From positions 6,112-70,111 of the forward strand of contig JANPBY010000101.1 in assembly GCA_031430645.1 (NCBI GenBank): DNA of 64,000 nucleotides. Direction: 5' to 3'. Numbering within the stretch: the stretch's first letter is position 1; every line of letters starts with the position of its first letter. The stretch comes from Actinomycetes bacterium (GTDB lineage Bacteria; Actinomycetota; Actinomycetes; DATJPE01). The notes under the pieces were generated by a model. It ran no database searches. It was not told the origin of the DNA and worked only from the letters and a program-made list of their open reading frames with translations. Position numbers and translations under genes: made by a program. This document shows positions 351-40,331 of the stretch, piece by piece.

Positions 351-1238
351 TCAGTCCGCGGACTCGCTCAGGTCGCTTGGGGTGGTGTCGAGGTCGCTTG
401 GGGTGGCATCCAGCGTCGAGGTCTCGTCGTCGTCCCACTCGTCGTAGACCGGGCGTCCCCTGCCGCGGCGCCGATCGTTGAGGGAGGCAAGCCCCATCGC
501 GATGAAGATCAGGCCCATGATGGGCACAGCCAGCAGGCTGAGGTTGAGCACATCGCCCGTCGGGGTGGCGATGGCGGCGAAGATCCAGGTGCCCAAGACC
601 ACCTCGCGCCACCGGCCCCACAACGTGGCGCCGGACACAACCCCCGCGGCGTTCAACATGATGAGAAACACGGGCAGCAGGAAGCCGATCCCGAAGAACA
701 GGCACATCCGGAGCACGAAGGTCAGATAGTCGTCCAATGGAACCAGGTTGTCGGTCTGATCGGGGGTGAACCCGAGCAGGACCCCCAGACCCTTGGGCAA
801 GGCCCAGTAGGCGAAGGCGATACCCAGGCAGAACAGCGGGACCGCAGCCGCGATGAAGCCGAAGGCCCAGCGCCGTTCGTGACGATGCATGCCGGGGGTG
901 ACGAAGCGCCACAGCTGATACAGCCAGACCGGCGAGGACAGGACGAGGCCGACATAGGCCGCGAGCTTGAGCTGAAGGCTGAACGCGCTTCCCACGCCGC
1001 CGATAACACTGATGCCGACGTTCTGCCCTTGGGCCTGCAACTCAGCGACGGCGACGTCTGCCGGGTGCCTGAGGAAGGCGAAGATCGGCTCGTAGAAGAC
1101 CCAGCCGATGATGCTCGCGAGGGCAACCGCCACAGCCGAGATGACCATCCGGCGCCGAAGCTCGCGCAAGTGCTCGGTCAGCGTCATTCGGCCCTCGGTG
1201 GGCCGAGGGGTCCGGCGCCGCCTCAGCAGCATGACCAC
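351..1238 (-). CDS. tatC: Twin-arginine translocase subunit TatC
   Basis: 295-aa multi-pass membrane protein with a TatC-like N-terminus (MTLTEHLRELRRR) and about six hydrophobic segments. It sits directly downstream of tatA, as in the M. tuberculosis Rv2094c-Rv2093c arrangement. The true start may be the internal Met at about 1187. Confidence 0.85.
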   Translation of the reverse strand: MVMLLRRRRTPRPTEGRMTLTEHLRELRRRMVISAVAVALASIIGWVFYEPIFAFLRHPADVAVAELQAQGQNVGISVIGGVGSAFSLQLKLAAYVGLVLSSPVWLYQLWRFVTPGMHRHERRWAFGFIAAAVPLFCLGIAFAYWALPKGLGVLLGFTPDQTDNLVPLDDYLTFVLRMCLFFGIGFLLPVFLIMLNAAGVVSGATLWGRWREVVLGTWIFAAIATPTGDVLNLSLLAVPIMGLIFIAMGLASLNDRRRGRGRPVYDEWDDDETSTLDATPSDLDTTPSDLSESAD

Positions 1239-1276
1239 GGCCTAGGCGATTTGGTGTCGGGTGGGCGCGCGCCGCG

Positions 1277-1570
1277 TCAGCGGTCGACGGGAGCGCCGGG
1301 ATCGACCGGCGGTGCCGCCGCCGGAGACGCCTCGGGAGCCCCAACGGGCGGGGACGTGTCCACGGGGGTGATCGCGGGGGGCGTCACTTGTTGCACTGTG
1401 GTCGTGGGGGGAGCGGCTTCGTCGTCGTTGACCAGGCCCTTGGTCTCGGCCTTGAAGATGCGCAGGGAGCGCCCGAGTCCACGGGCAGCGTCCGGGAGTC
1501 GCTTGGCGCCGAACAGCAGCACGACGACTAGCAGGATCAAGACGATCTCGATCGGCTTCAGGTTAGGCAT
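1277..1570 (-). CDS. tatA: Twin-arginine translocase TatA/E family subunit
   Basis: [42 protein letters not shown] is the canonical TatA transmembrane helix plus amphipathic helix. A GAGAGG Shine-Dalgarno lies about 7 nt upstream of ATG 1570. The C-terminal tail is Pro/Ala-rich. Confidence 0.85.
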
Positions 1571-1640
1571 GAGCAACCTCTCGTCTGCGGACGCCCTCAG
1601 CGTACCTCGTGGCCTCCGGTCAGCCGAGGAGCGCGCTCGA

Positions 1641-1976
1641 TCAGCGCGCGTGCAGGAGGGGTTGTACGGCGGGGACCACGGTGTCGTGGCCGTGCAGCCA
1701 CAGCGCGAAGTCGAGGAGGTCGTCGTAGCTCAACGCGGGACCCTCGTGCTCCTCCAGCGCCTCAGCGGGAATGTGCCACTGCTGGGCGCGCACTCCCCCG
1801 GAGACGAGCAGCGCGACGATCTCCTCATCGGCGGGCTTCTTGACCTCATCGGCGCAGGCAGGGCAGTCGAAGGCGTACGTCGACCAGTCCGTGCGCGTGC
1901 AAACGACCAGCCGGAGATCGGCAGGCTTGAGGTCGACGTCCCCACACGTGGGGCACGAGGCCTTGATCGTGGTCAT
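1641..1976 (-). CDS. Small conserved hypothetical protein with two CxxC pairs (zinc-ribbon-like)
   Basis: 111-aa ORF between pafC and tatA with motifs CPTCGD and CPAC. Third-position GC bias supports coding. It is co-oriented with and closely spaced to the paf and tat genes. Confidence 0.5.
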
Positions 1977-2137
1977 GACAGGTCCTCCCCTGAGGACCGG
2001 CGATGAACGATGAACAAGCGGCTGAGCCGAACGAATGAAGAGCGATGATTGAGCGGTTGGTCCTCACACAGGGCTTCGGCATCGGTGACGCCGACCTTGA
2101 CTCCTGGCGGCCACGATCACGACTGCGACCCGAGCGG

Positions 2138-3091
2138 TCAGGCGTATGCGCTTAGCGCCTCGGCGGCAGTCAGCCGCACCTCCGCCGCCAGAGACTCGGG
2201 TGCGACCACCGTCGCCCCGCCCGCCAGCCGGAGGACGAGTCGGCGCGCCCAGGCCAACTCCGGTGTTCGAAGGGTGACTCGCAGGCCGCCGTCCGCGTTC
2301 TCCACGGCCGCCTCGACAGGGTGATAGTCGATAACCCAACGCGCGTGTGGTGCCAGGTCTAGGACCACGAGAAGGTCAGTGGGGGTGCCGTGCCAGTTCC
2401 CCCCTGCCTGAGCGACGTCGGAGAGCGCGGCCTCCAGAGGCGGGGCCGAGGGTTCCTCAAGAACCTCAACGGAGACGATGCGGTCAAGCCTGAAGGTGCG
2501 CACTGCCTCGGTTGAGTGGCACCAGCCCTGGAGGTAGCCCGCGGTGGCGACGGTCACCAAGCGCATCGGGTCGACGGCGCGCTCAGACACTTCGTCGCGG
2601 GTCGGTGTCCAGTAGGAAAGTTGCAGCCGGCGCCCACGGGCCAATGCATCCTGCACGGCACCGACGACCGCGTCGTCGGCGACTGGCCAATCGGTCCCGG
2701 CTCCGGTGACCGTGGATGCTGACACCCCAATGGCCTCCTCGACCTTGGCCAGGGCGTGGTCCACCACCTCCCGATCTGCCAGCCCGGGGACAGCAGCGAG
2801 GGACCGGAGACCGACGAGCAGGGTGACAGCCTCGTCGACCCGCAACTGCATCGGGCGATCGACACTTTGCGCGTCGATGACCGTGATCTCGTCGTCCCAG
2901 AAATCGATGTCCAGGCTCGCGAGGGTGTCGCGTCCGACCTCGGCGCACGCCGCAAGCTCGAGGTCCGCCTCGAGCTGCGCACCGGAGATCGCGAAGGTGC
3001 GAGCAGCCTCTGCCTTGGTGACGCCTGGGTGGGCGACCAGCCAAGGGATGAGAGTGAGCAACCGCGTGAGTTGGTCCGAAGCACCGGCCAT
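2138..3091 (-). CDS. pafC: Proteasome accessory factor PafC (HTH plus WYL-domain transcription regulator)
   Basis: 317-aa protein in the position of PafC (Rv2095c). Its ATG overlaps the pafB TGA by one nucleotide (TGATG), and the domain layout is WYL-type. Confidence 0.75.
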   Translation of the reverse strand: MAGASDQLTRLLTLIPWLVAHPGVTKAEAARTFAISGAQLEADLELAACAEVGRDTLASLDIDFWDDEITVIDAQSVDRPMQLRVDEAVTLLVGLRSLAAVPGLADREVVDHALAKVEEAIGVSASTVTGAGTDWPVADDAVVGAVQDALARGRRLQLSYWTPTRDEVSERAVDPMRLVTVATAGYLQGWCHSTEAVRTFRLDRIVSVEVLEEPSAPPLEAALSDVAQAGGNWHGTPTDLLVVLDLAPHARWVIDYHPVEAAVENADGGLRVTLRTPELAWARRLVLRLAGGATVVAPESLAAEVRLTAAEALSAYA

Positions 3092-4038
3092 CAGGTGTTC
3101 CCCGCCAGGGTCGTCAGAGCCGCGACGACGAGTTCGCGCGTCCTGCTGGGCTCCTCCACGACAACGTCGACCCCGTAGGCCAGCACCTCACGGGCGAACG
3201 CTTCGTCGTCGCGCGTCGTCAGAGTGAGTCGGTCCCAGCCCTGGCCCAGGGACACCACCCCAGTAGCCCGCCGACGCAGGTTGTGCCCAGTTCCCTCCCG
3301 AACCCGGACCTGAGCCGGATGGGCTTCCCGGCCAGCCGATGGGTCAGCGACCAAGGTGGAGATGTCGGCATCCTGAGGAATGTCGAAGGCGGCCGCGGGA
3401 CCGTTCGTCTGGACGGACCCGGCGATCCGGTCGAGCCGGAAGGCTCGCGGTGCCTCCCGATCAAGATCGTGGCCGACGACATACCAGCGCCCGCGTCGGC
3501 TGACGACTCCCCACGGCTGGAGGCGCCGAGACTTAGAAGTGGTGGCACCGCTCGGTCTGTGGTCGAACGTGATCCCCTGCCGCCGGGCGATGGCCTGGGC
3601 AATCGGACCGAATGCCTGCTCCCCACCTGCCAACCTTGGCTCCACGAGGGACAGCGCTCCGGGGTCGACGTCTACGCCAGCGGCCTCGAGCTTGCGCAGC
3701 GCTCGGTCTGCAGCTGCCGCCCCTTCGGCGTGCCAGACTCGCCGGGCCAGGCCGAGCAGTGCCGCCTCCGCACTCGTGAAGGTCACTGGCGGAAGGGCAT
3801 GTGCGGACAGGTCGACGCGATAGCCCTCCTCGTCCCCACCGCTGACCGTCTCCAGGGGAACGCCGAGATCGCGAAGCTCAGCCTTGTCGCGCTCGAAGGT
3901 CTTTTCGAACGCTTCGTCGCTGACGGCTGTGGAATAGTCCTCGATGGCGTCGCGCAACTGCCGTTTGGTCACCGGTCGTTGTGCCTGGGAAAGACAAAGC
4001 AGTACCTCGAGGAGGCGCTCGGTCTTGTTGGCAGTCAC
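3091..4038 (-). CDS. pafB: Proteasome accessory factor PafB (HTH plus WYL-domain regulator)
   Basis: A GTG start at 4036-4038 is preceded by AGGAGG. The N-terminal HTH reads TANKTERLLEVLLCLSQAQRPVTKRQLRDAIEDYS. The longer 393-aa ORF-track version carries a non-coding-looking extension. Confidence 0.75.
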   Translation of the reverse strand: MTANKTERLLEVLLCLSQAQRPVTKRQLRDAIEDYSTAVSDEAFEKTFERDKAELRDLGVPLETVSGGDEEGYRVDLSAHALPPVTFTSAEAALLGLARRVWHAEGAAAADRALRKLEAAGVDVDPGALSLVEPRLAGGEQAFGPIAQAIARRQGITFDHRPSGATTSKSRRLQPWGVVSRRGRWYVVGHDLDREAPRAFRLDRIAGSVQTNGPAAAFDIPQDADISTLVADPSAGREAHPAQVRVREGTGHNLRRRATGVVSLGQGWDRLTLTTRDDEAFAREVLAYGVDVVVEEPSRTRELVVAALTTLAGNT

Positions 4039-4073
4039 ACAACCTCCTGGTGCCGTGCGTCGTTCAGGGGGAT

Positions 4074-4445
4074 TCAGTGGGCGTCGAGCAAGTCGATCAC
4101 GAAGACCAGGGTCTGACCGCCCAGCCGGTGGCCACTGCTTGCTGGGCCATACGCCAACTCGGGAGGAACGACGAGTTGACGGCGTCCGCCGACGCGCATT
4201 CCGGGAATACCGTCCTGCCAGCCCTGGATCAGGCCCTTGAGCGGGAACTCGATGGGCTCGCCGCGGTCCCACGAGGCGTCGAACTGCTCACCGGTCACGA
4301 AGTCGACTCCGACGTAGTGGACGAGGACCCGACCACCGGGAACCGCCTCAGCTCCCGTCCCCACGACCACATCAGCAATCGACAACTCCGTCGGCGGCTC
4401 GCCGCCCGGGAACTCGATGTCAGGCTTCTCGCTCAGGTCGGTCAT
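4074..4445 (-). CDS. FKBP-type peptidyl-prolyl cis-trans isomerase (single domain, cytoplasmic)
   Basis: 123-aa protein with FKBP signature segments (VHYVGVDFVTGEQFDASWDRGEPIEFPLKGLIQGWQDGIPGMRVGGRRQLVVPPELAYG). Confidence 0.85.
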   Translation of the reverse strand: MTDLSEKPDIEFPGGEPPTELSIADVVVGTGAEAVPGGRVLVHYVGVDFVTGEQFDASWDRGEPIEFPLKGLIQGWQDGIPGMRVGGRRQLVVPPELAYGPASSGHRLGGQTLVFVIDLLDAH

Positions 4446-4457
4446 CGTGGACTCTCT

Positions 4458-5447
4458 TCAGCTTGTGGGTGGGATCGCGTCGATGATGTCGACAACGACG
4501 GCTGTGCTGTCGATCGCCGGATCGCCGGCGGGTTCGGCCGGCACCAGCAGAAGCACTTGGCTACCGACCGGGATCCCGACCAACTTGTCGAATGGAGTTG
4601 CAGAACCCTCGACACCCACCGCGACGCCTAGGGGCTGCCCTGTAGACCAAGTGGATCCGAGTGCATTGTTGTTCCAGGTCACGGCTTCGTACTGAACCAC
4701 GACGAAGGATCCTTCGACGATCTGCGGCCCGTCCCCGCGGGCCAGGACCACCGTCGTCACCTCTGTGGGAGGAGCACTGCCCGCGGGCACAGTCAAGGTC
4801 GGCCGAGTCCCCGGGAAGCCGCTGACCGTCGGCAACCCCGTGAGGTTGGGGTTGCTGGGCGTTGATCCGGAATCCGACGTTGCTCCGGCGGAATAGGCAC
4901 GGAGAATGTCCACCACGAAGACGAGGGTGTCGTCGCCGCTGATCTTCGCGTCGGGCTGTCCGGCCTCGCCGTAGCCGAGCGACGGCGGGATCGCCATCAC
5001 GACGCGACTGCCCACGGTCTGCCCGACCAGCGCCGCGTCCCATCCGGGAATGACTTTCCCGACCCCGATGGCGAAGGACGTCGGTGTCGGGCGACCGAAA
5101 GAGGAGTCGAAGACGTTCCCGTCATCCCAGGTCTCCCCGAGGTAGTTGACGATCAAGAGGTCACCGACCTTGACCACGGGACCCGAGCCGGTGACCAGGG
5201 TCTTGGTCACGAGCGCATCGGCAGGGTCTTCCTCTGGAATGGTGATCTTGGGGGTCTCCCCAAATCCACCCTCCACATCAGGGATCGGCCCGGCCGCGGT
5301 CACGATGGGGGCCGGGGCGGACGCAGACGGGGAGGCAGCTGATCCGGCGGAGGAGCCGCCACACGCACTCATCAACGTCGCCAAGGCGACCGCTGTCAGT
5401 GAAAGAGCGAGGTGGTGCGGGGTACGGCGGCGCACGGGTGAACTCAT
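4458..5447 (-). CDS. FKBP-type peptidyl-prolyl isomerase lipoprotein with tandem FKBP domains
   Basis: N-terminal signal plus lipobox (LMSACGG), then two FKBP domains (…VNYLGETWDDGNVFDSSF… and …VQYEAVTWNNNALGSTWS…). Confidence 0.8.
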   Translation of the reverse strand: MSSPVRRRTPHHLALSLTAVALATLMSACGGSSAGSAASPSASAPAPIVTAAGPIPDVEGGFGETPKITIPEEDPADALVTKTLVTGSGPVVKVGDLLIVNYLGETWDDGNVFDSSFGRPTPTSFAIGVGKVIPGWDAALVGQTVGSRVVMAIPPSLGYGEAGQPDAKISGDDTLVFVVDILRAYSAGATSDSGSTPSNPNLTGLPTVSGFPGTRPTLTVPAGSAPPTEVTTVVLARGDGPQIVEGSFVVVQYEAVTWNNNALGSTWSTGQPLGVAVGVEGSATPFDKLVGIPVGSQVLLLVPAEPAGDPAIDSTAVVVDIIDAIPPTS

Positions 5448-5495
5448 CTCGATCGGGGGAGATCAAACCCTAACCCGGGAGGACAGGTGTCCCTC

Positions 5496-6857
5496 TCACA
5501 TGGAGGCGATGAGGCGTTCCACCCGCTCGTCGACCGATCGAAATGGGTCCTTGCACAGCACAGTGCGCTGGGCTTGGTCATTGAGCTTGAGATGGACCCA
5601 GTCGACGGTGAAGTCCCGACGGTTCTCCTGAGCCTTCTTGATGAATTCGCCGCGGAGCTTGGCCCTGGTCGTCTGCGGAGGAACGGACTTGGCTTGAAAC
5701 ACGTCGAGATCTCGGGTTACCCGTTCCACCTGACCCTTGCGTTCGAGCAAGGTGTACAGCCCCCGACGCCGATCGATGTCGTGATACGCGAGGTCGAGCT
5801 GGGCGATCCTCGGGGACTCGAGGGGCAGGTCGTGCTTGACCATGTAGCGTTCGAGGAGCCGCTTCTTGATGACCCAGTCGATCTCACGTTCGATGGGGCC
5901 GAAATTCTGGCTCTCGACCGCGGTCAGGGTGCGCTCCCAGAGGTCCAGCACCTGCTTGGTGACACCCTCGTCGATGCCTCTGCGGGCGGCGAAGTCGCAG
6001 GCCCGGGTGAGGTATTCGGTCTGGATGTCCAACGCTGACACCTCGCGACCGTTGATTAATCGGACGGTGCGACGTCCGGTCGTGTCGTGGGAGATCTCCC
6101 GAATCGCCCGAATCGGGTTCTCCAGGGTGAGGTCCCTCATGACGACGCCGGACTCGATCAGTTGCAGGACCAGGTCAGCCGAGCCGACCTTGAGCAGCGT
6201 CGTGGTCTCAGCCATGTTCGAGTCGCCGACGATGACATGAAGGCGTCGGTATTTCTCGGCGTCAGCGTGTGGCTCGTCACGGGTGTTGATGATGGGGCGC
6301 GAGCGCGTCGTGGCGGACGAGACCCCCTCCCAGATGTGCTCGGCGCGCTGACTCACGCAAAAGACCGCGCCCCGCGGGGTCTGCAACACCTTCCCGGCCC
6401 CGCAGATCATCTGCCGACTGACCAGGAACGGGATCAAGATGTCAGACAGGCGCCCGAAATCCCCGGAGCGCCCCACGAGGTAGTTCTCGTGACACCCGTA
6501 TGAGTTCCCAGCCGAGTCTGTGTTGTTCTTGAACAAGTAGACGTCGCCGGGGATGCCCTCCTCGTGGAGACGACGTTCCGCATCGACGAGCAGGCCTTCG
6601 AGGATGCGTTCGCCGGCCTTGTCGTGGGTGACGAGATCGATGAGCGAGTCGCATTCTGGGGTCGCGTACTCAGGGTGGCTCCCGACGTCAAGGTAAAGAC
6701 GAGCGCCGTTGCGGAGGAAGACGTTGGACGATCGACCCCACGAGACCACGCGCCGAAACAAGTAGCGCGCGACCTCATCCGGTGAGAGCCGGCGTTGGCC
6801 CTTGAACGTGCACGTGACGCCGTACTCGTTCTCCAACCCGAAGATCCGACGCTCCAT
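5496..6857 (-). CDS. pafA: Pup--protein ligase PafA
   Basis: [16 protein letters not shown] start plus the carboxylate-amine ligase core shared with Dop ([45 protein letters not shown]). Position matches Rv2097c. Confidence 0.9.
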
Positions 6858-8888: not shown

Positions 8889-9353
8889 GTGGTCAACGGG
8901 GGGACGGCACTGGCCGCAGCTGGTGCGCTAACGGCGACGGCCTGGGGAACGGCTGCCCTGGCCGCAACGTCTGCCGCTGAAGCCGGTTCGCAGCCACCAG
9001 CCCCGTCCGCCAAGGAGCCACTTCCCACGGCCACTGCACTAGGGCCGACGCTGACTCCCCCCGCTACGCCTCCGACGGCTGCATCGAGCCCAGGGGCCTC
9101 GCCCAGGGGAAGCGCACCCGCACAGGGAAAGCCCGCATCCTCGCCAGCGTCCAGCACCTCGACGAAGCCGAAACCCGCTGCCAAGAAGTCGCCGGCATCA
9201 AGCAAGGCGACCACAAGGCCATCCTCGTCACCCAAGGCCAGTGCCTCACCGAAACCCAAGCCATCCTCTCCCAAGCCGTCACCGCCACCCTCCTCCAGTC
9301 AGCCTCCCGAGCCGACACCGGAGCCGAGCCCAACGCGCAGCTCAGGGTCGTGA
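8889..9353 (+). CDS. Possible secreted Pro/Ser/Thr/Ala/Lys-rich low-complexity protein. Coding frame is uncertain (see findings).
   Basis: A GTG at 8889 opens a signal-peptide-like MVNGGTALAAAGALTATAWGTAALAATSAAEA, followed by a long PSTAK-rich tract. Its TGA overlaps the apbE GTG (GTGA). However, the alternative frame (the apbE frame) has at least as strong third-position GC in this interval. Confidence 0.25.
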   Translation: MVNGGTALAAAGALTATAWGTAALAATSAAEAGSQPPAPSAKEPLPTATALGPTLTPPATPPTAASSPGASPRGSAPAQGKPASSPASSTSTKPKPAAKKSPASSKATTRPSSSPKASASPKPKPSSPKPSPPPSSSQPPEPTPEPSPTRSSGS

Positions 9354-10339
9354 CCAAGTCCAGGACCACAGCCGACCACGTGGCCGAGTGGCCGATGTGG
9401 TCGACAACGGTGCGGGTCGTCACACGCGATCCGGGCATGCTCAGGGTCGCCAGCCAAGCCGTCGAGTCCGAGCTCGTGGGCATGGACCGTGCCGCCAGCC
9501 GCTTTCGCGTCGACAGCGAGGTGTGCCGGCTGGCGGCCTCGGGAGGTCGTCCGACGCGAGTCTCTCCCCTGCTGGCAGCGACGTTGCGGGCCGCGTTGCG
9601 AGTTGCCTCAGCGACCGGCGGTGCTGTCGACCCGACTGTCGGAAACGCCTTGGTAGCCGCTGGCTACGACGCCGACTTCTCCGTGATCTCGGCGCGAGCG
9701 CCATCGTCGTACGACCCTCGACCAGCACTAGGCCCTCAACCAGCTCTGGACCCTCAACCAGCTCTGTCACTCCCGATCGAGCTTCAGGTGGCCACCACGT
9801 GGAGGGACATCCACCTGGTGGGCGACGTGGTCACGTTGCCGGACGGTCTGCTGCTGGACCTTGGCGCCACCGGCAAGGCACTCGCGGTCGACCGGGCTGC
9901 CGTACGCGCGTCGATCGCTGCTCAAGGTCCGGTCCTCGTCGCGGTTGGAGGTGACCTTCGCGCCGCAGGGACGTCACGAAGCGAGCCATGGCTCGTCGAA
10001 GTCGCCGAACGCCCAGAGGACGAGGGAGTGGCCTGGGTGCGTGTATCGGACGGCGGGGTGGCCACGTCGACCACTTTGACGCGTCGATGGCGGGCTGGAG
10101 CGGGCTGGGCGCATCACGTATTCAACCCCCGAACCGGTCGGCCGGCTGAGGTTCATTGGAGGACTGCGACTGTCGCTGCGGCGACCTGTGTCGACGCCAA
10201 CGCCGCCAGCACCGCCAGCATCGTCAAGGGACTCGGGGCTGAGGCCTGGCTGCGCTCCGGCCGTCTACCCTCCCGGCTGGTAGACCGCGACGGCGCCGTA
10301 CTGGTCGTTGCGGGTTGGCCGGAGCAGGTGGCGGCGTGA
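9350..10339 (+). CDS. apbE: FAD:protein FMN transferase (ApbE family)
   Basis: 329-aa protein with ApbE-like conserved blocks (…MWSTTVRVV…, …DLGATGKALAVDRAA…, …ATSTTLTRRW…HHVFNPRTGRPA…). The GTG start overlaps the upstream stop. Confidence 0.8.
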   Translation: MTKSRTTADHVAEWPMWSTTVRVVTRDPGMLRVASQAVESELVGMDRAASRFRVDSEVCRLAASGGRPTRVSPLLAATLRAALRVASATGGAVDPTVGNALVAAGYDADFSVISARAPSSYDPRPALGPQPALDPQPALSLPIELQVATTWRDIHLVGDVVTLPDGLLLDLGATGKALAVDRAAVRASIAAQGPVLVAVGGDLRAAGTSRSEPWLVEVAERPEDEGVAWVRVSDGGVATSTTLTRRWRAGAGWAHHVFNPRTGRPAEVHWRTATVAAATCVDANAASTASIVKGLGAEAWLRSGRLPSRLVDRDGAVLVVAGWPEQVAA

Positions 10340-10947
10340 CGCTCCTGCAAGACCCGGCCCTCCTCTGGTACGTCAATCGCGCAGCTGGGCTCGTGCTGCT
10401 CGTGCTCCTGACAACGGCGACCGTGCTCGGAGTGGGCGCGGTCGACCGACGCACGAGGTCCCGCGTGGGACCGGCGGGCGTTCGTCGAACCCGCCCGGTC
10501 GGCCGCTTTCCGGGCTTTGTGCTCCCCGAGCTGCACCGCCGGGTGGCACTGGTTGCCGTAGCTCTGACTTTCCTGCATATCATTCCTGCTGTTCTGGACG
10601 ACTACGTCCCGATCGACTGGCTCGACGTCGTCGTTCCCTTCGCTTCGGACTACCGTCCGTTGTGGCTCGGCTTGGGGACGCTGACCTTCGATGTCTTGGC
10701 GGTTGTCGTGGTCACCGCACTGGTGAGGACGCGGATCGGCCCGGTCTCCTGGAAGGTCATCCACAAATCCGTCTACGTGACCTGGCCGTTGGCGGTCCTT
10801 CACAGCGTGAACACCGGGACCGACACAGGTGGAGTCTGGGGTTGGTTGGTCCTTGGTTGCGTCCTCGCGGTCGTCGCCGCTTGCTTCGCGCGACTGCGGA
10901 GCATGGCGGCCAGTGACCGTGCAGCCCGACGCCCCGTGCTCCGCTGA
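10315..10947 (+). CDS. Ferric-reductase-like transmembrane domain protein (MsrQ/YedZ-like heme-binding membrane component)
   Basis: 210-aa protein with about six TM helices and conserved His in helices (…ALTFLHIIPAVLD…, …WKVIHKSVYVTWPLAVLHSV…). It immediately follows apbE, with possible GTG at 10336 overlapping the apbE TGA. Confidence 0.6.
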   Translation: MAGAGGGVTLLQDPALLWYVNRAAGLVLLVLLTTATVLGVGAVDRRTRSRVGPAGVRRTRPVGRFPGFVLPELHRRVALVAVALTFLHIIPAVLDDYVPIDWLDVVVPFASDYRPLWLGLGTLTFDVLAVVVVTALVRTRIGPVSWKVIHKSVYVTWPLAVLHSVNTGTDTGGVWGWLVLGCVLAVVAACFARLRSMAASDRAARRPVLR

Positions 10948-31838: not shown

Positions 31839-32902
31839 GTGGCTACCCCGGAGAGCTCGAGAGCACCTACCAGCGTCCGCAGCGTGGCGATGCGTTCGTC
31901 GAGAGACCCGGAGTAGGTGGCAACGGTGAGAGTGGTCACGCCCGCCTCTGCATAGGCCACGAGCCGGTCACTGACTCGCTCCGGCGGTCCGATGAGCGAG
32001 GTCTGGTCGATCAGCTCCTGGGGGACGGCTCCGGCTGCGCCCGCGTAGTCCTTCGCGAGGTAGCGGTCCTGGATCTCGATGGCAGCCGCCTCGTACCCCA
32101 TCCGGACCGCCAACGCGTTGTAGAAGTTCTGCTGACGGCTTCCCATTCCGCCGATGTACAGCGCGGCGTAGGCCCGAATCGGGCCGGCGCAGGCTTCGAG
32201 GTCGTCCCCGAGGACGACCGGCACGGTGGGCACGACATCGAACCCGTCCATCGACAGCCCAGCCCTCTCCCTACCGGTACGGATATGAACCAGGGACTCC
32301 TCGGCGTGCTCGGGAGCGTAGAAGATGGCCAGCCATCCGTCCGCGATCTCACCTGCTAGCTCGAGGTTCTTAGGACCAACGGCAGCGAGGTAGATCGGTA
32401 GATGGTCACGCACCGGGTGCACGGTCAGCCGAAGGGCCTTGCCCGGCCCGTCCGGCAACGGCAGCGTCCAATGCTCGCCCTCGAAGCGCACGGTCTCGCG
32501 AGCCAAGGCCTGGCCGACGATCGCTACGTACTCCCGGGTGCGGCCGAGCGGCTTGTCAAAGCGCACCCCGTGCCAGCCCTCGGACACTTGGGGGCCGGAG
32601 ACCCCCAGCCCGAGACGGAAGCGTCCCCCGGACAGAGTGTCGAGGGTGGCGGCTGTCATCGCGGTCATTGCTGGTGTGCGCGCAGGGATCTGGAAGATCG
32701 CGGACCCGATGTCGATGCGTTCGGTGTGGGCTGCGATCCATGACAGAACCGTCGCGGCGTCGGAGCCGTACGCCTCGGCAGCCCACACGACTGAGTACCC
32801 CAGCCGGTCAGCCTCCTGAGCCAGGACGAGATTGTCAGCGTCGTTGCCGGCGCCCCAGTAGCCGAGGTTGAGACCGAGCTTCACTGCACTCTCCTGACGC
32901 AT
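31835..32902 (-). CDS. LLM-class F420-dependent oxidoreductase (luciferase-like monooxygenase family)
   Basis: 355-aa TIM-barrel LLM sequence character (KLGLNLGYWG… and …GGRFRLGLGVSG…). Its 4-nt overlap with uppP suggests an operon. Confidence 0.75.
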   Translation of the reverse strand: MRQESAVKLGLNLGYWGAGNDADNLVLAQEADRLGYSVVWAAEAYGSDAATVLSWIAAHTERIDIGSAIFQIPARTPAMTAMTAATLDTLSGGRFRLGLGVSGPQVSEGWHGVRFDKPLGRTREYVAIVGQALARETVRFEGEHWTLPLPDGPGKALRLTVHPVRDHLPIYLAAVGPKNLELAGEIADGWLAIFYAPEHAEESLVHIRTGRERAGLSMDGFDVVPTVPVVLGDDLEACAGPIRAYAALYIGGMGSRQQNFYNALAVRMGYEAAAIEIQDRYLAKDYAGAAGAVPQELIDQTSLIGPPERVSDRLVAYAEAGVTTLTVATYSGSLDERIATLRTLVGALELSGVAT

Positions 32903-32952
32903 CGCCGTGTGGCGGCGAGATTAGCGTCCGCCACCTGGATAGCCTCGAGCGC

Positions 32953-33936
32953 ATGGACCAAAGAGCCCTTGGACGTACGGGCTTGCGCGTGTCGCGGCTC
33001 GGCCTGGGAACCATGACTTGGGGTCGTGACTCCGACGAGCACGAGGCTAGGGAGCAACTCACGCTGTTCGTCGAGGCCGGCGGCACGCTCGTGGACACAG
33101 CTGCGGCCTACGGCGCAGGTGTCAGCGAGGAAGTCCTGGGAACGCTGCTCGGCTCCGTCGTGCCCCGTTCTGAGCTGATCGTTGCCACGAAGGCCGGCAT
33201 CGCACGCTCGGGCGACGGTACTCGTTCGGTGGACACCTCTCGTCGCGCCCTCCTCGATGCCCTGGACGCCTCCTTGGCCCGGCTCGGCGTCGACCACGTC
33301 GACCTGTGGCAGGTTCACACGTGGAGCGCGGACACCCCGATCGAGGAAACCCTCGCAGCACTGGACACTGCGGTCGCCAGCGGGAGAACTCGCTACGTAG
33401 GAATCTCCAACTACTCCGGCTGGCAGACCGCTCAGGCGGTCACCTGGCAACAGGCGTGGCCGGGACGGGCGCTGATAGCCAGCACCCAGGTGGAGTACTC
33501 CCTTCTTCAGCGCGGTGTCGAGCGCGAGGTGCTCCCCGCTTGCCAGGCGCTCGGGCTCGGCCTGCTCCCGTGGTCCCCACTCGGGCGGGGCGTCCTGTCT
33601 GGGAAGTACCGCAACGGGATCCCCGCCGACAGTCGGGCGGCGTCCCCGCACTTCGCCTCGTTCGTGGAGCCCTTCCTCACGGGTTCCTCGCAGGCAATCG
33701 TCACCGCCGTGGCGACGGCCGCTGACGGACTGGGCCTGTCGCCGCTCGAGGTGGCCCTGGCGTGGGTACGTGATCGACCAGGTGTGACCTCGCCGATCGT
33801 GGGAGCACGTACCGCAGCCCAACTCAAGGGAATCCTTCCGGTCGAGGACCTCGAGTTGCCCGACGAGATCAGGGACGCCCTGGATGAAGTCTCAGCTCCG
33901 CCGTCGGGCTACCCCGACGACACGCGCCGCACCTGA
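32953..33936 (+). CDS. Aldo/keto reductase
   Basis: MDQRALGRTGLRVSRLGLGTMTWG…, the IDTAAAYG block and later AKR motifs. Confidence 0.8.
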   Translation: MDQRALGRTGLRVSRLGLGTMTWGRDSDEHEAREQLTLFVEAGGTLVDTAAAYGAGVSEEVLGTLLGSVVPRSELIVATKAGIARSGDGTRSVDTSRRALLDALDASLARLGVDHVDLWQVHTWSADTPIEETLAALDTAVASGRTRYVGISNYSGWQTAQAVTWQQAWPGRALIASTQVEYSLLQRGVEREVLPACQALGLGLLPWSPLGRGVLSGKYRNGIPADSRAASPHFASFVEPFLTGSSQAIVTAVATAADGLGLSPLEVALAWVRDRPGVTSPIVGARTAAQLKGILPVEDLELPDEIRDALDEVSAPPSGYPDDTRRT

Positions 33937-33971
33937 TGGGCGGGCGCACCGTCGAATGCAGATAATGGTCC

Positions 33972-34187
33972 ATGCGGCGGATCGCGACGGAGTACGAGTT
34001 CATCGAGTTGAGCTTTCCCCGTGGAACAACGCGTGAGGAATCGCGGCGTGCGCTGACCGAACGCGCCGAATACGGTTCGTGGGAGTTGGCCAGGCTGCGC
34101 TTGTACGCTGATGGCTCGCGTCGCGTATGGCTGAAACGGCTGATCATCAGACAGGGCCAGCGGGGCTGGATAGCAGCCAACGCATGA
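33972..34187 (+). CDS. Small conserved hypothetical protein
   Basis: 71-aa basic ORF (MRRIATEYEFIELSFPRGTTREESRRALTERAEYGSWELARLRLYADGSRRVWLKR). Coding-like composition. Confidence 0.4.
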   Translation: MRRIATEYEFIELSFPRGTTREESRRALTERAEYGSWELARLRLYADGSRRVWLKRLIIRQGQRGWIAANA

Positions 34188-34234
34188 TGGAGAAGCCGAT
34201 CCGCGAGCCGGAGCCGATCAGTTCGGAGGATCCG

Positions 34235-35488
34235 ATGATTCGCCCATTGCCGGCGGATGCGATCCTCCTGCACATTGGCATCCACAAGACCGGCACAACG
34301 GCCCTGCAGGGAGCCGCGAGTGCCTCCCGAGAGCCGCTGTCCACGTGCGGCACCACCTACCCGGGTAGGAGGAAGGATCACCACGCCGAGGCTATGGCCC
34401 TTGTCGACACGAAGGTGGGCTGGGAGACCGTCAGCACCCCTCGAAGAAACGCACAGATCTGGCGGAAGTTCGCTGACACGGTGTCCCAAACCGGCGGGCG
34501 GGTCCTGATCAGCAGCGAGTTCTTCTGTCAAGCGAACGACAAGCAGGCCCAGCGGGCCGTGGGGTCACTCGGTGCGGACAGGGTCCACGTTGTCCTCGGG
34601 CTACGACCCCTGGCCAAACTGCTGCCGTCCTCATGGCAGCAATACCTCAAGAACGGGCGAACGGGCAGCTACGAGAGTTGGCTCAAGCACGTCCTCGCTG
34701 ACCCGCCCGGCATGAAGCAGACGCCTTCCTTCTGGCTGCGAAACGATATCCCCGCTGTCCTTGATCGCTGGGCGGAGTTGATCGGACCCGACAGAATCAC
34801 TGCGGTCATGGTCGACCCAAATCACCGCGATCGGATGTCCGACACGGTTTGTACGCTGCTCGATCTGCCACCTCGCCTGCTCAGTGCGCAAACCCAAGGG
34901 ATCCGAAGCAACCGCGCCATGACCGGGGCAGAGGCCGAACTGATCCGCCAGGTGAACGTCGTGGCCAGACGGGAACTGAGCTCCCCGGACTACATCGCCC
35001 TCGTGCGAAACGGTGCGGCTCGGAGGATGGTCGAGGGCCGGACCCCCGGTCCGCTCGAGCGCGAACTCGGTCTTCCCGCGTGGACCGCGCCTCGATTGGC
35101 GGAGATAGGGGCAACGCACCTGTCGGCGCTGCGGTCGAGCGGAGTCCACATCGTCGGGGATCCCTCGATTCTGGCCGCCCCAGCCGACACCTCGGAACCG
35201 TCCCTCGCCACTGAGCTGCCGATCGATGCCGCAGTTCAGGCCCTGCTCGGCACCTTGCTCAAGGTGTCCACTGCAAAAGGAAATCGTACCGACGAACGAC
35301 TAGTCAGGGCCGTCAAATCGCGGAAGCTGGCCGAAGTCGCCTTGGTGCGTGCGAGGGCGAAGCTTCGCCTGGGCACCCGCGGGAGCCGCCGCAGAGCTGG
35401 GCGACCGCGGAAACTAGGTGGCACGACCGATACCACCTCAGGCCAGGTCGAAGAAGCGGTCGAGGACGCGCACTCCGAACTGGAGTGA
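34235..35488 (+). CDS. Sulfotransferase-family protein (PAPS-binding P-loop-like motif) with highly basic C-terminal tail
   Basis: The ATG at 34235 has a GGAGGA Shine-Dalgarno. The N-terminal LLHIGIHKTGTTALQ resembles the 5'-phosphosulfate-binding loop of sulfotransferases. The C-terminal 70 aa are Arg/Lys-rich. Confidence 0.5.
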   Translation: MIRPLPADAILLHIGIHKTGTTALQGAASASREPLSTCGTTYPGRRKDHHAEAMALVDTKVGWETVSTPRRNAQIWRKFADTVSQTGGRVLISSEFFCQANDKQAQRAVGSLGADRVHVVLGLRPLAKLLPSSWQQYLKNGRTGSYESWLKHVLADPPGMKQTPSFWLRNDIPAVLDRWAELIGPDRITAVMVDPNHRDRMSDTVCTLLDLPPRLLSAQTQGIRSNRAMTGAEAELIRQVNVVARRELSSPDYIALVRNGAARRMVEGRTPGPLERELGLPAWTAPRLAEIGATHLSALRSSGVHIVGDPSILAAPADTSEPSLATELPIDAAVQALLGTLLKVSTAKGNRTDERLVRAVKSRKLAEVALVRARAKLRLGTRGSRRRAGRPRKLGGTTDTTSGQVEEAVEDAHSELE

Positions 35489-36742
35489 GTCCACCGGCAC
35501 GCGCTCATCAACGCCGTGAAACATGCCAGCGAAGTCCAGGTCGGGAGGCAGCTGAAGGGGAGCAAACCCGAAGCAGCGGATCCCGAGCCTGGAGAACGCC
35601 TTGGCGTCCGTACCGCCAGAGAGTGTGTAGGGCACGGCCCGCGCCGCGGGGTCCTCAGCTTGTAGGGAGGCACACATCGCATCGACCAAAGCGCCGTCGA
35701 AGTCGGTTTCGAGAGCGATGTCGTGGATCACGAACTCGCGAGTGATGTCTGGGCCGAGCACTTCGTCGACTTGGGCAAAGAACTCGTCCTCAAAGCCCGG
35801 CAGGAACCGCCCGTCAACGAAGGCGTGAGCTTCACCCGGGATGACGTTGTGCTTGTAGCCTGCCTCCAGCATCGTTGGATTGACGGTGTTGCGAAGCGTC
35901 GCACCGATAATCGTCGAAAGCGCGCCGAGGCGCGCCACGGTCGCTTCCATGTCATCGGCGTCTAGCTCAATTCCGAGGGCGTCAGAAACCTCACCGAGAA
36001 ATGTTCGCACCGTCTTGGTGACCCGGATGGGGAACTGATGGCGTCCCAGTCGCGCGACCGCTTCACAGAGGTCGGTGACAGCGTTGTCGTGGTTGATCAT
36101 CGAGCCGTGACCGGCACGGCCAGTCGCTGTGAGCTTCATCCAGGCGATGCCCTTCTCGGCGGTTTCGACGAGATAGAGGCGAAGATCGTCCGACACAGTC
36201 AAGGAGAACCCTCCGACCTCGCCGATGGCCTCCGTACAGCCTTCGAAGACGTCTGGGTGATGGTCAACCAACCAGTGACCACCGAAGCGCCCGCCCGCCT
36301 CCTCGTCAGCCAGAAAGGCAAGCACAAGGTCGCGGTTCGGGGGCCGGCCTGCCCGAGATCGCTCACGAATGACGGCCAGAATCATTGCGTCCATGTCCTT
36401 CATGTCGACGGCGCCACGGCCCCAGACGCAGCCGTCGGCGACCTCCCCAGAGAATGGATCCACCTTCCACTGATCGGCAATCGCTGGAACGACGTCGAGG
36501 TGGCCATGCACAAGGAGCGCGTCTCTGTCTGGGTCGGTCCCCGCAATCCTGGCTATCACACTCGCTCGTCCGGGCGCGGACTCATAGAGCGTGCCCTGAA
36601 TGCCTACCTCGGCCAGGCTCGCCATGACGTACTCGGCCGCCGCTCGCTCCCCAGGCCCGGATCCGTCGCCGCGGTTGACGCTAGGAATCCTGATCAGGTC
36701 GCGGCAGATCTCGACGACCTCGTCCTCGGGTGTGGTGGTCAT
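35438..36742 (-). CDS. M20/M25/M40 family metallopeptidase (dipeptidase/ArgE/DapE-like)
   Basis: 434-aa protein with the metal-binding blocks (LLVHGHLDVVP…, WGRGAVDMKD…, …ADEEAGG…). Confidence 0.8.
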   Translation of the reverse strand: MTTTPEDEVVEICRDLIRIPSVNRGDGSGPGERAAAEYVMASLAEVGIQGTLYESAPGRASVIARIAGTDPDRDALLVHGHLDVVPAIADQWKVDPFSGEVADGCVWGRGAVDMKDMDAMILAVIRERSRAGRPPNRDLVLAFLADEEAGGRFGGHWLVDHHPDVFEGCTEAIGEVGGFSLTVSDDLRLYLVETAEKGIAWMKLTATGRAGHGSMINHDNAVTDLCEAVARLGRHQFPIRVTKTVRTFLGEVSDALGIELDADDMEATVARLGALSTIIGATLRNTVNPTMLEAGYKHNVIPGEAHAFVDGRFLPGFEDEFFAQVDEVLGPDITREFVIHDIALETDFDGALVDAMCASLQAEDPAARAVPYTLSGGTDAKAFSRLGIRCFGFAPLQLPPDLDFAGMFHGVDERVPVDSLQFGVRVLDRFFDLA

Positions 36743-36808
36743 AGCCCCATCTTGCCCGTGGCCAGTCGCTGGGGCACCCTTCCCGATGGGTATAGTTGGC
36801 GGGCACTC

Positions 36809-36894
36809 GTCCGGGTGGCGGAATTGGCAGACGCGCTAGCTTGAGGTGCTAGTGCCCTTTACCGGGCATGGGGGTTCAAGTCCCCCCTCGGACA
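36809..36894 (+). tRNA. tRNA-Leu (anticodon GAG)
   Basis: Manual fold: 7-bp acceptor stem GTCCGGG/CTCGGAC with one G-U pair; D arm GCG…CGC; anticodon stem CTAGC/GCTAG with loop TTGAGGT giving anticodon GAG; long variable arm typical of class II Leu; T arm GGGGG-TTCAAGT-CCCCC; discriminator A. CCA is not encoded. Confidence 0.85.
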
Positions 36895-37534
36895 CACGTT
36901 CCACGGACAGAGCCGCAGGCACGAGCCTGCGGCTCTGGTCATTCCCGGGTCCACGCAGCCTTGGACGGTCGGCGACTTCAGCCCAGCCGAACGCCGGAAG
37001 TCTTGGGCCACTCGACGGGTGTCCCCGCGGATTCCCGCGTCGTAGATTCGCACGGTGAGCCCTACCTTGGCTGAAGCGGCCGCCCGATGATTGCTGTTTT
37101 GTGGTTGAGCGCGCTCTTGGCCGCTGTCGCCGGCGCCGTCGAGATCAGCGGGGGTCGACCGATTCTCGGCGCAACGCTGATCGGCCTGGCCCTCCTCATC
37201 GGCCCCTGTGGGAGGCTCGTCCTCCGTGAGACATCCCGCCCGATTTTGAACGCCGTCCATGACTCCGCGACTCGAAAGCCGAGCCTTCGTGGGCGCTGAC
37301 GACGACCGCGGCTGCCCCGGCCACACCTGGCGGCTTACGGGAGGTGCCCGCGGCGCCAACGGAGCGCACGCTCAATACGAGTGCGAGTTATGCCACAGAG
37401 CGCTCTGGGTCTCCCCCGGCGATCTCCATCCCGCCGACATGGGAGGGTTCCCGCCCGTTGCCTGAGTGAAGGGACGAGGCCGCGCGTCTCCTGGTGTCAG
37501 ACTCTCGACACGAGGAACGACGAGAGGGCAGTCC

Positions 37535-39010
37535 ATGCTTGAGGCAGCAGGAGTCGGCAACCGACTGAGCAAGGCCGACTACAAGGCGATCGTGCCGCAA
37601 CTGCGGCTCGAACTCGTGGATGCCCAGTACGCACTCAAGAGTGCGGACTTTCCCGTCGTCGTCATTATTGCCGGCGACGACCGGGTCGCTGCCAACGAGA
37701 CCGTGAACAGGCTCAACGAGTGGCTCGATACCCGTTTGATCAGAACCCACGTGATGGCCGAACTGAACGAGGCGGAGCGCGACCGTCCGCGATTCTGGCG
37801 TTTGTGGCAGGCGATGCCGCCCAACGGGGGCATCGCTATCTGGGCAGGCGGGCTGTTCCGTCAGGTCACCGCCTATCTCAGGGGCGAGATTGACGGCGTC
37901 CAGCTCGAGACCTGGACCTCGCACCTGGAGAGCCTCCAGGATGACCTCGTCGCAGACGGTGCGCTCGTCGTCAAGTTCTTCCTCCACACACCGGCGGATG
38001 CTCAGCGCGTACGTCTGAAGCGGGCGCAGAGTGACCCGGCTCTGGGGTGGCGGGTCGACCAGCGGGATTGGGCGGCGCTCGACTCGCTCTCCAAAGCCAG
38101 ACCTGTCGTCGAGAGACTCCTCCGGCGGTTGTCGTTCCCTGGCTCTCCCTGGACCGTTGTTGAGGCCACCAACAGCAGGTACCGGGACGTAACCGTGGCT
38201 CGCACGCTGCTGAGTGCACTCACTTCACGGCTGGCCCAAGCTCCGTCACCCGCCATGCCTTCGATGCTCTCCGCCCCAGACGCCAATCAGGTCAGCGTTC
38301 TCGCCACAGTGGATCTGAGCGCAAGAGTCGAGAAGGAGCTTTATCGGAAGCGCCTGAACAAACTCCAGTCCAGACTTCATCGGCTGTCGCTCGAGGCGCG
38401 TGAGCGGGGGCTTTCCACAGTGCTGGCCTTCGAGGGTTGGGATGCCGCGGGCAAGGGTGGGGTCATCCGCCGAGTCACGCAATCGCTGGAGTCGGGCGAC
38501 TTCAGGGTGATCTCCACTGCAGCCCCGAGCGCCGAGGAACGTCGGTACCACTACTTGTGGAGGTTCTGGCGGGACCTGCCAGCGGCCGGCACCGTCGTCA
38601 TCTATGACCGCACCTGGTACGGCCGGGTACTCGTGGAGCGGGTCGAGGGATTCGCAACCGAGGCAGAGTGGCAGCGGGCGTATGACGAGATCAACGACTT
38701 CGAGGCGCAGATGGTTGAGCGCGGGTACCTCGTGCAGAAGTTTTGGTTGCACATCTCCCCCGACGAGCAGCTGGCGCGCTTCCAGGCCCGCGAGAACACG
38801 CCATACAAACAACACAAAATCACCGAGGAGGACTACCGCAACCGTGGCCGCTGGGCGGACTACGAGCGGGCCGTCGACCACATGGTGCTCCGCACCTCTA
38901 CGGAAGAAGCGCCCTGGTATCTCGTCTCCTCGAATGACAAGTTGCACGCCCGCATCGAGGTCCTCGAGAAAGTGACCGCCGGCCTGAAACTGGCCTTGCG
39001 CCGACTGTGA
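37535..39010 (+). CDS. Two-domain polyphosphate kinase 2 family protein (polyphosphate:AMP/nucleotide phosphotransferase type)
   Basis: About 490 aa with two PPK2 modules. The second has Walker A-like FEGWDAAGKGG and the conserved VIYDRTWYGRVLVERVEGF block. The ATG at 37535 has a GAGGG Shine-Dalgarno. Confidence 0.8.
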   Translation: MLEAAGVGNRLSKADYKAIVPQLRLELVDAQYALKSADFPVVVIIAGDDRVAANETVNRLNEWLDTRLIRTHVMAELNEAERDRPRFWRLWQAMPPNGGIAIWAGGLFRQVTAYLRGEIDGVQLETWTSHLESLQDDLVADGALVVKFFLHTPADAQRVRLKRAQSDPALGWRVDQRDWAALDSLSKARPVVERLLRRLSFPGSPWTVVEATNSRYRDVTVARTLLSALTSRLAQAPSPAMPSMLSAPDANQVSVLATVDLSARVEKELYRKRLNKLQSRLHRLSLEARERGLSTVLAFEGWDAAGKGGVIRRVTQSLESGDFRVISTAAPSAEERRYHYLWRFWRDLPAAGTVVIYDRTWYGRVLVERVEGFATEAEWQRAYDEINDFEAQMVERGYLVQKFWLHISPDEQLARFQARENTPYKQHKITEEDYRNRGRWADYERAVDHMVLRTSTEEAPWYLVSSNDKLHARIEVLEKVTAGLKLALRRL

Positions 39011-39116
39011 GTTCGCGCAAAAAGATTCTGGGCCGACGTCACCCATTTGCCACATCCCCGATTGCCCGACAGCCCACCCTCGCGCCATCCTGAGGACACA
39101 AGGGGTGGGGGAAGTC

Positions 39117-40331
39117 ATGCAGGAGGGGATCTCGACGGCGCCCGGACGCCGTCCCCAGGTGGCGCTCGCGATGAGCGCAGCCTTGGCGTTGGTCCTGTTC
39201 ATGTCCCTGCTGCTCTCGACCCAGCCCCTGCCTCGTGCCCTTCCCTGGTGGGCCGCGCTGCCGACCATCGCCGTCCTGTATGCGATCGCCAACCGGACGC
39301 AGTATCTGCGACCAACAGGGAGCGTCAGCACGCTGTCGTACTCCCCGACGACGCCCTTCCTGCTCGCCGGAGCAATTCTGCTTCCGCCCCTGCCGCTTCT
39401 CGCGCTGGCCGTCGTCACTACCTCACCGCACAGCCCGCGCCGTTTGAACATTCTCAGCCTCCGCCTAGGTACGATGAGCGCGGCCTCGCTCGCTTATTGG
39501 CTCGTCAACGGCACAGCCGTTCAAGAGGTGTCCAGCGCCAACGCCAACCAGCAGTCACTGGCGCTGATCGCGTCGATGGTGGCCTACGAGCTGGCTCAGC
39601 TGGTCATCCTCAACGGTTCGATCTGGATGACTGAGGGCATCTCCTTGGCGCGTCAGGCCGCAACCTGGGGTCGGGAGTACGTCGCTGGCGAGGCGTGGGA
39701 ATTGTCGGCCGGGGCTGTCGCCGCCACGTTGGCCCTCACCGCGCCAGTGCTACTCCTCCCCGCAGCAGGTCTCCTGGTTCTCATCGTCGGCCAGGCGCAG
39801 TACGCACAGGCGATCCACGATCGGGACCGCGATGCAAAGACGGGCTTGCTCAACATGCGCGCCTTCACCAGGCTTGCCGATCGGGAGCTTTCAAGTGCTC
39901 GCCGGCACGGGCACCCGCTGTCCTTCTTGATGATCGATGTCGACCACCTTCGGGCCATCAACACCGAGCACGGACACCTGGGCGGAGATGCAGCGATCGC
40001 GACCGTTGCGGCCGTGCTCACCCAGCATCTGCGCGACGAGGATCTTGCTGCTCGATTCGGCGGTGAAGAGTTCGCTGTAGCACTCCCCCACACAGATCTA
40101 GCGCAAGCCGCCGAGGCCGCCGAGCGGATCCGAGGCGCCATCGAGGAATCTCGGCAAAAAGTCTCCACCGGCACCTTGCGAGTGACGGTCTCTGTCGGGG
40201 TCAGCCGATTCTCCGCGGGTGACAGCCTTGACCATCTGCTGGTCTCCGCCGATCGCGCGCTCTATGAGGCCAAGGATGACGGCCGAAACCTCGTTCGCTT
40301 GGCCGCCCGTGCGGGAGTTCTCGACACCTGA
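39117..40331 (+). CDS. Membrane-anchored diguanylate cyclase (GGDEF domain)
   Basis: N-terminal multi-TM region, then a GGDEF domain with active-site RFGGEEFAV and the preceding DVDHLRAINTEHGHLGGD. Confidence 0.85.
   Translation: MQEGISTAPGRRPQVALAMSAALALVLFMSLLLSTQPLPRALPWWAALPTIAVLYAIANRTQYLRPTGSVSTLSYSPTTPFLLAGAILLPPLPLLALAVVTTSPHSPRRLNILSLRLGTMSAASLAYWLVNGTAVQEVSSANANQQSLALIASMVAYELAQLVILNGSIWMTEGISLARQAATWGREYVAGEAWELSAGAVAATLALTAPVLLLPAAGLLVLIVGQAQYAQAIHDRDRDAKTGLLNMRAFTRLADRELSSARRHGHPLSFLMIDVDHLRAINTEHGHLGGDAAIATVAAVLTQHLRDEDLAARFGGEEFAVALPHTDLAQAAEAAERIRGAIEESRQKVSTGTLRVTVSVGVSRFSAGDSLDHLLVSADRALYEAKDDGRNLVRLAARAGVLDT

Follow-up and report, generated by a model that had tools for sequence, protein, structure and literature searches.

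A probable sulfotransferase from a large, unnamed actinobacterial protein family, encoded by an orphan gene in a housekeeping block

The sulfotransferase fold has a 5′-phosphosulfate-binding (PSB) strand–loop–helix with a conserved Lys and Gly, a strand–turn–helix that binds the 3′-phosphate (PB) with the pattern RxxxDxxxS and its Ser on the helix, and a catalytic base that is His or Glu, the latter in NST1 and HS3ST1 (review, PMC11625862). A Glu base is reported for the heparan-sulfate N- and 3-O-sulfotransferases, and the NDST1 N-sulfotransferase domain (PDB 1nst) and the 3-O-sulfotransferases (3bd9, 7sce), which are eukaryotic Golgi enzymes acting on carbohydrate polymers, all carry a Lys in the PSB loop, a PB-helix Ser and a Glu base (PMC11625862). 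Here we describe a gene at 34235..35488 (+ strand) in a 64,000-nucleotide stretch of an Actinomycetes bacterium (lineage DATJPE01; contig JANPBY010000101.1 of GCA_031430645.1, positions 6,112 to 70,111), referred to below as the window. Its product is probably a sulfotransferase dependent on 3′-phosphoadenosine 5′-phosphosulfate (PAPS), belonging to a new family that lacks a curated model, and is recognized from sequence and predicted structure at the level of fold and motifs. The window protein, which has the Lys and the Ser too, is 12–14% identical to NDST1 and the 3-O-sulfotransferases with no match at the sequence level, and differs from them in its basic tail and in an additional C-terminal domain, helical and about 120 residues long. 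The Alicyclobacillus acidocaldarius protein 3rnl, itself uncharacterized, has 247 residues, is 15% identical and lacks the C-terminal domain. The mycobacterial enzymes Stf0, Stf1 and Stf9 are far more distant from the window protein than the heparan-sulfate type is, and the PSB loop of Stf0 has Arg instead of Lys (PMC11625862).

Residues are numbered from ATG 34235, giving a protein of 417 aa, and conservation was counted over 361 unique family sequences, with some positions scored in 358 or 360. A sequence-only reading of the locus had likened the N-terminal motif LLHIGIHKTGTTALQ to the PSB loop of sulfotransferases; this motif is present, its residues H, G, K, G, T and Q are invariant or nearly so across the family, and since K18 and G20 are each retained in 357 of 358 sequences it is no chance motif (T21 is retained in 351 of 358). 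The PSB strand–loop–helix (34262..34309, +; core residues 10–25, ILLHIGIHKTGTTALQ) has the loop HKTGTT between a strand at 10–15 and a helix at 21–30 in the structural model, with Lys18 the predicted catalytic Lys, and the loop is also kept in Pfam-positive relatives. The 3′-phosphate-binding motif, whose presence the same reading had proposed to check, was found as R124-x7-S132 in a strand–turn–helix (34583..34651, +; core residues 117–139, VHVVLGLRPLAKLLPSSWQQYLK), in which a model strand at 117–123 leads to Arg124 and, eight residues further on, a helix at 126–139 bears Ser132. Arg124 occurs in all 361 sequences and Ser132 in 359. The motif reads RPLAKLLPS, so that the RxxxDxxxS spacing of PF00685 is kept with the central Asp replaced by Lys, and both residues align with the R and S of a PF00685-positive relative.

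The same reading had proposed to look for a catalytic Lys or His; an invariant candidate base is present, and it is Glu95, neither Lys nor His. This candidate general base directly follows the core strand RVLISS (34499..34519, +; strand 89–94 in the model), is found in 360 of the 361 sequences, and aligns with the E of LSAEVF in a Sulfotransfer_1-positive protein of Cereibacter. A further conserved motif, SNR(S/A) (34907..34918, +), contains Asn226 (358/360) and Arg227 (353/360) and is a possible third cofactor contact; its fourth position is Ala in the window copy, as against Ser in 334 of 360 sequences.

Because curated models are silent on the window protein, its link to sulfotransferases depends on the fold and on a relative that bridges the gap. 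An AlphaFold model made from the alignment (predicted local distance difference test score, pLDDT, 85.7; predicted template modelling score, pTM, 0.81) is an alpha/beta structure with a central parallel sheet that can be superposed on solved sulfotransferases, and the best Foldseek match is the sulfotransferase 3rnl (E 1.3e-4), with other P-loop proteins interspersed lower in the list. The bridge comes from tblastn searches of plasmids, which returned Rhodobacterales proteins named 'sulfotransferase domain-containing protein' by the Prokaryotic Genome Annotation Pipeline. One of these, WP_011836239.1 of Cereibacter sphaeroides pA, is 32% identical over residues 10–154 (tblastn E 6e-9, pairwise blastp 2e-16) and scores 38.3 bits on PF00685 against a cut-off of 22; another, WP_190941326.1 of Paracoccus yeei, scores 24.8 bits. 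In a joint alignment with these proteins H13, G15, K18, T19, T21, Q25, S93, E95, R124 and S132 are invariant, such that the nearest relatives passing a curated model keep all hallmark residues. They differ from the window protein in being proteobacterial, and their C-terminal halves are unalignable and lack the SNRS region and the basic tail. We conclude that membership in the superfamily rests on the predicted fold, the motifs and this transitive sequence link, with no curated Pfam family reached.

The surroundings of these plasmid genes were also recorded. The Cereibacter relative has as neighbours an NAD-dependent epimerase and another protein annotated as a sulfotransferase (locus L091, 4868–7044 and 12313–12474), and the Paracoccus relative adjoins a GH99-like protein (L092, 4992–8235). 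Both are possibly plasmid-borne sulfated-glycan loci.

The family to which the window protein belongs is large. A profile search recovered at least 2,069 clusters at 50% identity at E ≤ 1e-30 and 6,829 at 1e-10, and the named members, all from Actinobacteria, are without exception labelled 'hypothetical protein'. We surveyed a non-redundant set of 84 loci, for the most part with a single locus per GTDB species and each with 8 kb of flank on either side, in which neighbouring open reading frames (ORFs) were picked by score or cross-locus conservation and hidden Markov models (HMMs) were built for the recurrent ones. Genes for teichoic-acid-type glycopolymers, counted as at least one neighbour class, lie near the family gene in 66 of the 84. 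An ABC-2 permease is present in 36 loci (35 on the same strand and within 1 kb), an ABC ATPase in 57 (a median of 4 nt upstream, with an HMM that also catches FtsE of a prfB-ftsEX clade), and a CDP-alcohol phosphatidyltransferase in 35, downstream and adjacent or overlapping; TagF-like glycerophosphotransferases occur in 39, GT2 and GT4 glycosyltransferases in 29 and 24 respectively, LCP ligases in 24 and TarI/TarJ-like proteins in 7. About 35 loci share a same-strand arrangement of ABC-2 permease, ABC ATPase, family gene and CDP-alcohol phosphatidyltransferase, together with TagF-like, GT2, GT4 and LCP genes. In an example from a complete chromosome (L015), a divergent nucleotidyltransferase and TagF-like pair comes before an ABC ATPase, after which lie the family gene, a pair of CDP-alcohol transferases and a GT2; a permease was flagged by the ABC-2 HMM, and the ORF tested was not confirmed by Pfam. 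The gene immediately 3′ of the family member there (9104–10912) joins a CDP-alcohol phosphatidyltransferase to DUF5941 and precedes the second CDP-alcohol transferase, an unusual pairing for a wall-polymer cluster.

The family domain is also found fused to glycan-assembly domains, with GT2 and TarS_linker in one protein (P0128) and with GT4 in two others (P0214, P0265). Proteins of about 800 aa with two copies of the domain are common (listed among P0121–P0124, P0128, P0214 and P0265), and several members of 500–750 aa carry extra regions without a Pfam match. Tandem or convergent paralogues share a single locus in L008 (7653–10350), L009, L059, L079, L061, L053, L037 and L082, with as many as three in L008 and L053, which suggests several sulfation specificities per cluster.

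WbdD is a kinase-methyltransferase that acts as chain terminator in ABC-transporter-dependent O-antigen pathways, and the family would resemble it in two respects: in the roughly 35 loci above the family gene comes directly after those for the permease and ATPase of the exporter, and a catalytic domain is followed by a helical region and a basic C-terminal segment. In contrast to WbdD, a terminal sulfate cap or a role in chain length is conjecture for this family. Across the family, the acceptor is most likely a teichoic-acid-type envelope glycopolymer or its lipid-linked precursor.

A neighbour-joining tree separates clades with different contexts, namely the exporter operon, prfB-X-ftsEX, RDD-X, crt-cysDNC and a Streptomyces TarIJ/TagF context, where X is the family gene. 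In the prfB clade (L052, identical to L007, 6001–7266; also L047, L048, L050 and L063) it lies between prfB, encoding release factor 2, and ftsE-ftsX-M23 peptidase-smpB, an operon of cell division and wall hydrolysis. A search of the collected loci for adenosine 5′-phosphosulfate (APS) kinase gave one match, directly 5′ of the family gene in L083, where the order over 283–6640 is crtI, crtB, cysD, cysNC (GTP_EFTU plus APS_kinase) and then, 3 nt on, the family gene. Two metagenome loci, L088 (24–1753) and L089 (682–8820), also have cysNC as the gene just before the family gene, overlapping it or 3 nt away, and the three are mutually 70–74% identical; L089 retains the order in full, preceded by crtE and followed by two convergent lycopene-cyclase halves. 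Mycobacterium tuberculosis assimilates sulfate via APS reductase, so that its APS kinase would serve mainly sulfotransferases. Of the evidence at hand, the cysD-cysNC operon points best to PAPS use by the family, and it concerns one subclade. The aquatic Actinobacteria with this cluster may make a sulfated carotenoid or another lipid bearing sulfate.

The window copy itself lies in different surroundings. HMMs from related loci, run across the 64 kb, returned generic ABC ATPases and a short-chain dehydrogenase only. In the tree it groups with L004, which has no glycopolymer genes, and with L008 and L009, which have TarIJ, TagF-like and adjacent paralogous genes, and more loosely with L010, L014 and L022, all without glycopolymer genes. 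The surrounding block comprises genes for a MshC-like ligase, DUF3090, a histidine phosphatase, CorA, BacA, a luciferase-like oxidoreductase, an aldo-keto reductase (AKR) and DUF5703, then the sulfotransferase-fold gene, an M20 peptidase, tRNA-Leu, PPK2 and GGDEF. The window copy is thus an ordinary orphan member of the family inserted into a housekeeping block, between DUF5703 and M20.

Both ORFs reported in the sequence-only reading are present, at 33972..34187 (71 aa) and 34127..35488 (+), the latter being the longest form of the sulfotransferase-fold gene (453 aa). The database-called form (P0001, 434 aa) starts at ATG 34184, which shares an ATGA with the DUF5703 stop and has no Shine-Dalgarno sequence. 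Translation probably begins at ATG 34235 instead, because a Shine-Dalgarno GGAGG (34225..34229, +, read from the sequence) precedes this codon by 5 nt and conservation among the aligned homologues sets in at the same point, MIRPLP; the spacing from the DUF5703 gene is then 47 nt, or a 4-nt overlap if translation starts at 34184. The GC content at the three codon positions is 0.66/0.53/0.76 in a genome of 65% GC, which is typical of genuine coding sequence, and the protein has more than 200 homologues (best E 1e-106). A promoter and terminator scan of 32800–36900 gave no informative signal.

The small upstream ORF (33972..34187, +) was described as basic, and with 15 K/R against 9 D/E and a pI of 11.0 it is; it encodes a DUF5703 protein (PF18963, E 1e-22), and we found no mention of DUF5703 in the literature. 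The two genes are probably co-transcribed. The proposed pairing does not hold up beyond the window, as none of the other 83 family loci has DUF5703 within 8 kb of the family gene, and DUF5703 has its own conserved AKR-DUF5703-M20 context. Two other Actinobacteria (L093, 4001–5569; L095, 4001–5510) have the block BacA, luciferase-like, AKR, DUF5703 and M20 without a sulfotransferase-fold gene, and in Vallicoccus (L094, 4001–7219) an amino-acid permease occupies the DUF5703–M20 junction. Since the other family loci lack the pairing and DUF5703 and M20 are contiguous in L093 and L095, the adjacency is accidental and the gene a lineage-specific insertion, which displaced the M20 peptidase gene (35438..36742, − strand; PF01546/PF07687), the usual downstream neighbour of DUF5703. 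A toxin–antitoxin-like reading of the pair was rejected for want of a conserved context. The junction carries different inserts in different lineages and may be an insertion hot spot. Further along, just past tRNA-Leu(GAG) (36809–36895), two PPK2 (polyphosphate kinase 2) stretches occur in a protein of 514 aa (37466–39010), which is followed by a GGDEF protein (39105–40331).

The C-terminal part of the protein begins with a family-specific alpha-helical domain (34922..35284, +; core residues about 230–350), followed by a basic segment that includes a predicted helix (35249..35422, +; residues 375–432 of the longest ORF) and is defined by composition, with low model confidence. The reading of the last 70 residues as Arg/Lys-rich is borne out for this segment, which has 19 K/R against 3 D/E, but not for the final 21 residues, which form an acidic extension (35423..35485, +) with no K/R, 7 D/E and a pLDDT below 50. 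No homologue in the alignment has this extension. Most of its codons fall in the 51 nt shared with the convergent M20 gene (35438–35488), and it looks like a by-product of the insertion. The basic segment is kept family-wide (median 8 K/R against 2 D/E). Binding of nucleic acid by the tail, which had been suggested, was rejected in the absence of a conserved context, there being no recurrent DNA- or RNA-related neighbours around a family whose context is the cell envelope; that context favours binding to a membrane or polyanionic polymer. We infer that the tail tethers the enzyme to a membrane or polyanion, fitting work on lipid-linked polymers.

We propose, by analogy with solved sulfotransferases, that the protein is likely a cytoplasmic, probably membrane-associated, PAPS-dependent enzyme. 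The HKTGTT loop (Lys18, Thr19, Thr21 and Thr22) would hold the 5′-phosphosulfate of PAPS, and Arg124 and Ser132 the 3′-phosphate. Glu95 would deprotonate the acceptor hydroxyl for in-line attack on the sulfur, with Lys18 stabilizing the departing 3′-phosphoadenosine 5′-phosphate. The C-terminal helical domain presumably forms the acceptor site, and the basic segment presumably tethers the enzyme to an anionic membrane or anionic polymer. In the family generally, the acceptor would be a teichoic-acid-type glycopolymer or lipid-linked precursor modified ahead of export by the ABC transporter.

Several observations weigh against this proposal. The search against Sulfotransfer_1 and Sulfotransfer_3, which the sequence-only reading had named as one way to check it, gave no match for the window protein itself; no Pfam family, Sulfotransfer_4 included, was matched at E ≤ 1, nor was any NCBIfam model. 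Among 37 relatives, three matched Sulfotransfer_4 and one Sulfotransfer_1, all below threshold (best E 0.012), and phmmer and a 37-sequence profile against the PDB gave chance matches only and no solved sulfotransferase, as did short queries limited to the PSB and PB segments (chance matches only). The assignment of the window protein as a sulfotransferase therefore stands on its fold, its 3′-phosphate motif and the candidate base Glu95, but not on a direct profile match. Glu95 was tentatively matched to the catalytic Glu of NDST1 and the 3-O-sulfotransferases by secondary-structure position, and the basic tail is only weakly amphipathic, a suggestive but not significant signal (median hydrophobic moment 0.55, z 0.9 against shuffles). 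The 64-kb window contains neither an APS kinase nor a glycopolymer cluster detectable with the HMMs used, and because contexts vary by clade (prfB-ftsEX, RDD, carotenoid plus cysDNC) a single family-wide acceptor is unlikely. Curated sulfotransferase models are noted in a recent review to miss bacterial polysaccharide sulfotransferases (PMC11625862).

An alternative explanation for the nucleotide-binding features is that the protein is an ATP-using P-loop kinase or phosphotransferase. We consider this very unlikely, as the loop reads G-x-H-K-T-G-T-T with its Lys ahead of the Gly, which is the PSB pattern and not the Walker A pattern GxxxxGK[ST], kinases are not the best structural matches, the R-x7-S motif for the 3′-phosphate is invariant, and genes for PAPS synthesis are operonic with the family gene in one clade. 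The protein could also be a non-catalytic relative of sulfotransferases with a regulatory or structural role, its tail binding nucleic acid or another polyanion, and the family-wide retention of the basic segment would suit such a role; near-absolute conservation of cofactor and catalytic positions over 361 sequences nonetheless argues for an active enzyme, recurring DNA- or RNA-related neighbours are lacking, and we give this explanation hardly any credence. Just as improbable in our estimation is a functional two-gene module in which the DUF5703 protein is partner or regulator: the genes are on the same strand with the close spacing given above, and so are probably co-transcribed, but the pairing is confined to the window among the 84 loci, and at the same junction L093 and L095 run from DUF5703 directly to M20 while L094 has its permease there.

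The rival with most substance accepts a true PAPS-dependent sulfotransferase but takes the acceptor of the window copy to be a small molecule or lipid (a glycolipid, isoprenoid quinone, carotenoid or similar) and not a wall glycopolymer. Neither the window nor the nearest relative, L004, has glycopolymer genes, one subclade is found within crtE-crtI-crtB-cysD-cysNC-X beside lycopene cyclase, and known actinobacterial sulfotransferases such as Stf0 use glycolipids (PMC11625862). Against this, the near relatives L008 and L009 adjoin TarI/TarJ-like and TagF-like genes, and most family loci, as well as the domain fusions, indicate glycan assembly. We regard a small-molecule or lipid acceptor as possible though doubtful. 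The earlier suggestion of a glycolipid or secondary-metabolite substrate is accordingly refined and not confirmed, with relatives mostly in teichoic-acid-type clusters.

Returning to the proposed sulfotransferase, sulfated polysaccharides are described as uncommon in bacteria outside the cyanobacteria and as unverified in actinomycetes (PMC13390465), and we found no description of sulfated teichoic acids in Actinobacteria in the literature. As sulfated polysaccharides are regarded as unusual in these bacteria and the gene is conserved in exporter operons, the family is a worthwhile and testable lead. It is a tentative suggestion that the family is an unrecognized sulfotransferase of actinobacterial teichoic-acid-type wall polymers, with the sulfate either a widespread modification or a terminal cap that gates export in the manner of WbdD. 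If this is true, wall-polymer sulfation would extend to Nanopelagicales, Streptomyces and many other Actinobacteria, and for one offshoot of the family the substrate may be a carotenoid or some other crt-cysDNC cluster product. Thousands of 'hypothetical' members keep all the cofactor-binding hallmarks and lie in teichoic-type exporter operons of abundant freshwater and soil Actinobacteria, and this unnamed family could receive a profile and a name. If the family is active, it would represent an unrecognized anionic modification of actinobacterial walls, with a bearing on phage adsorption, cation binding and antibiotic access.

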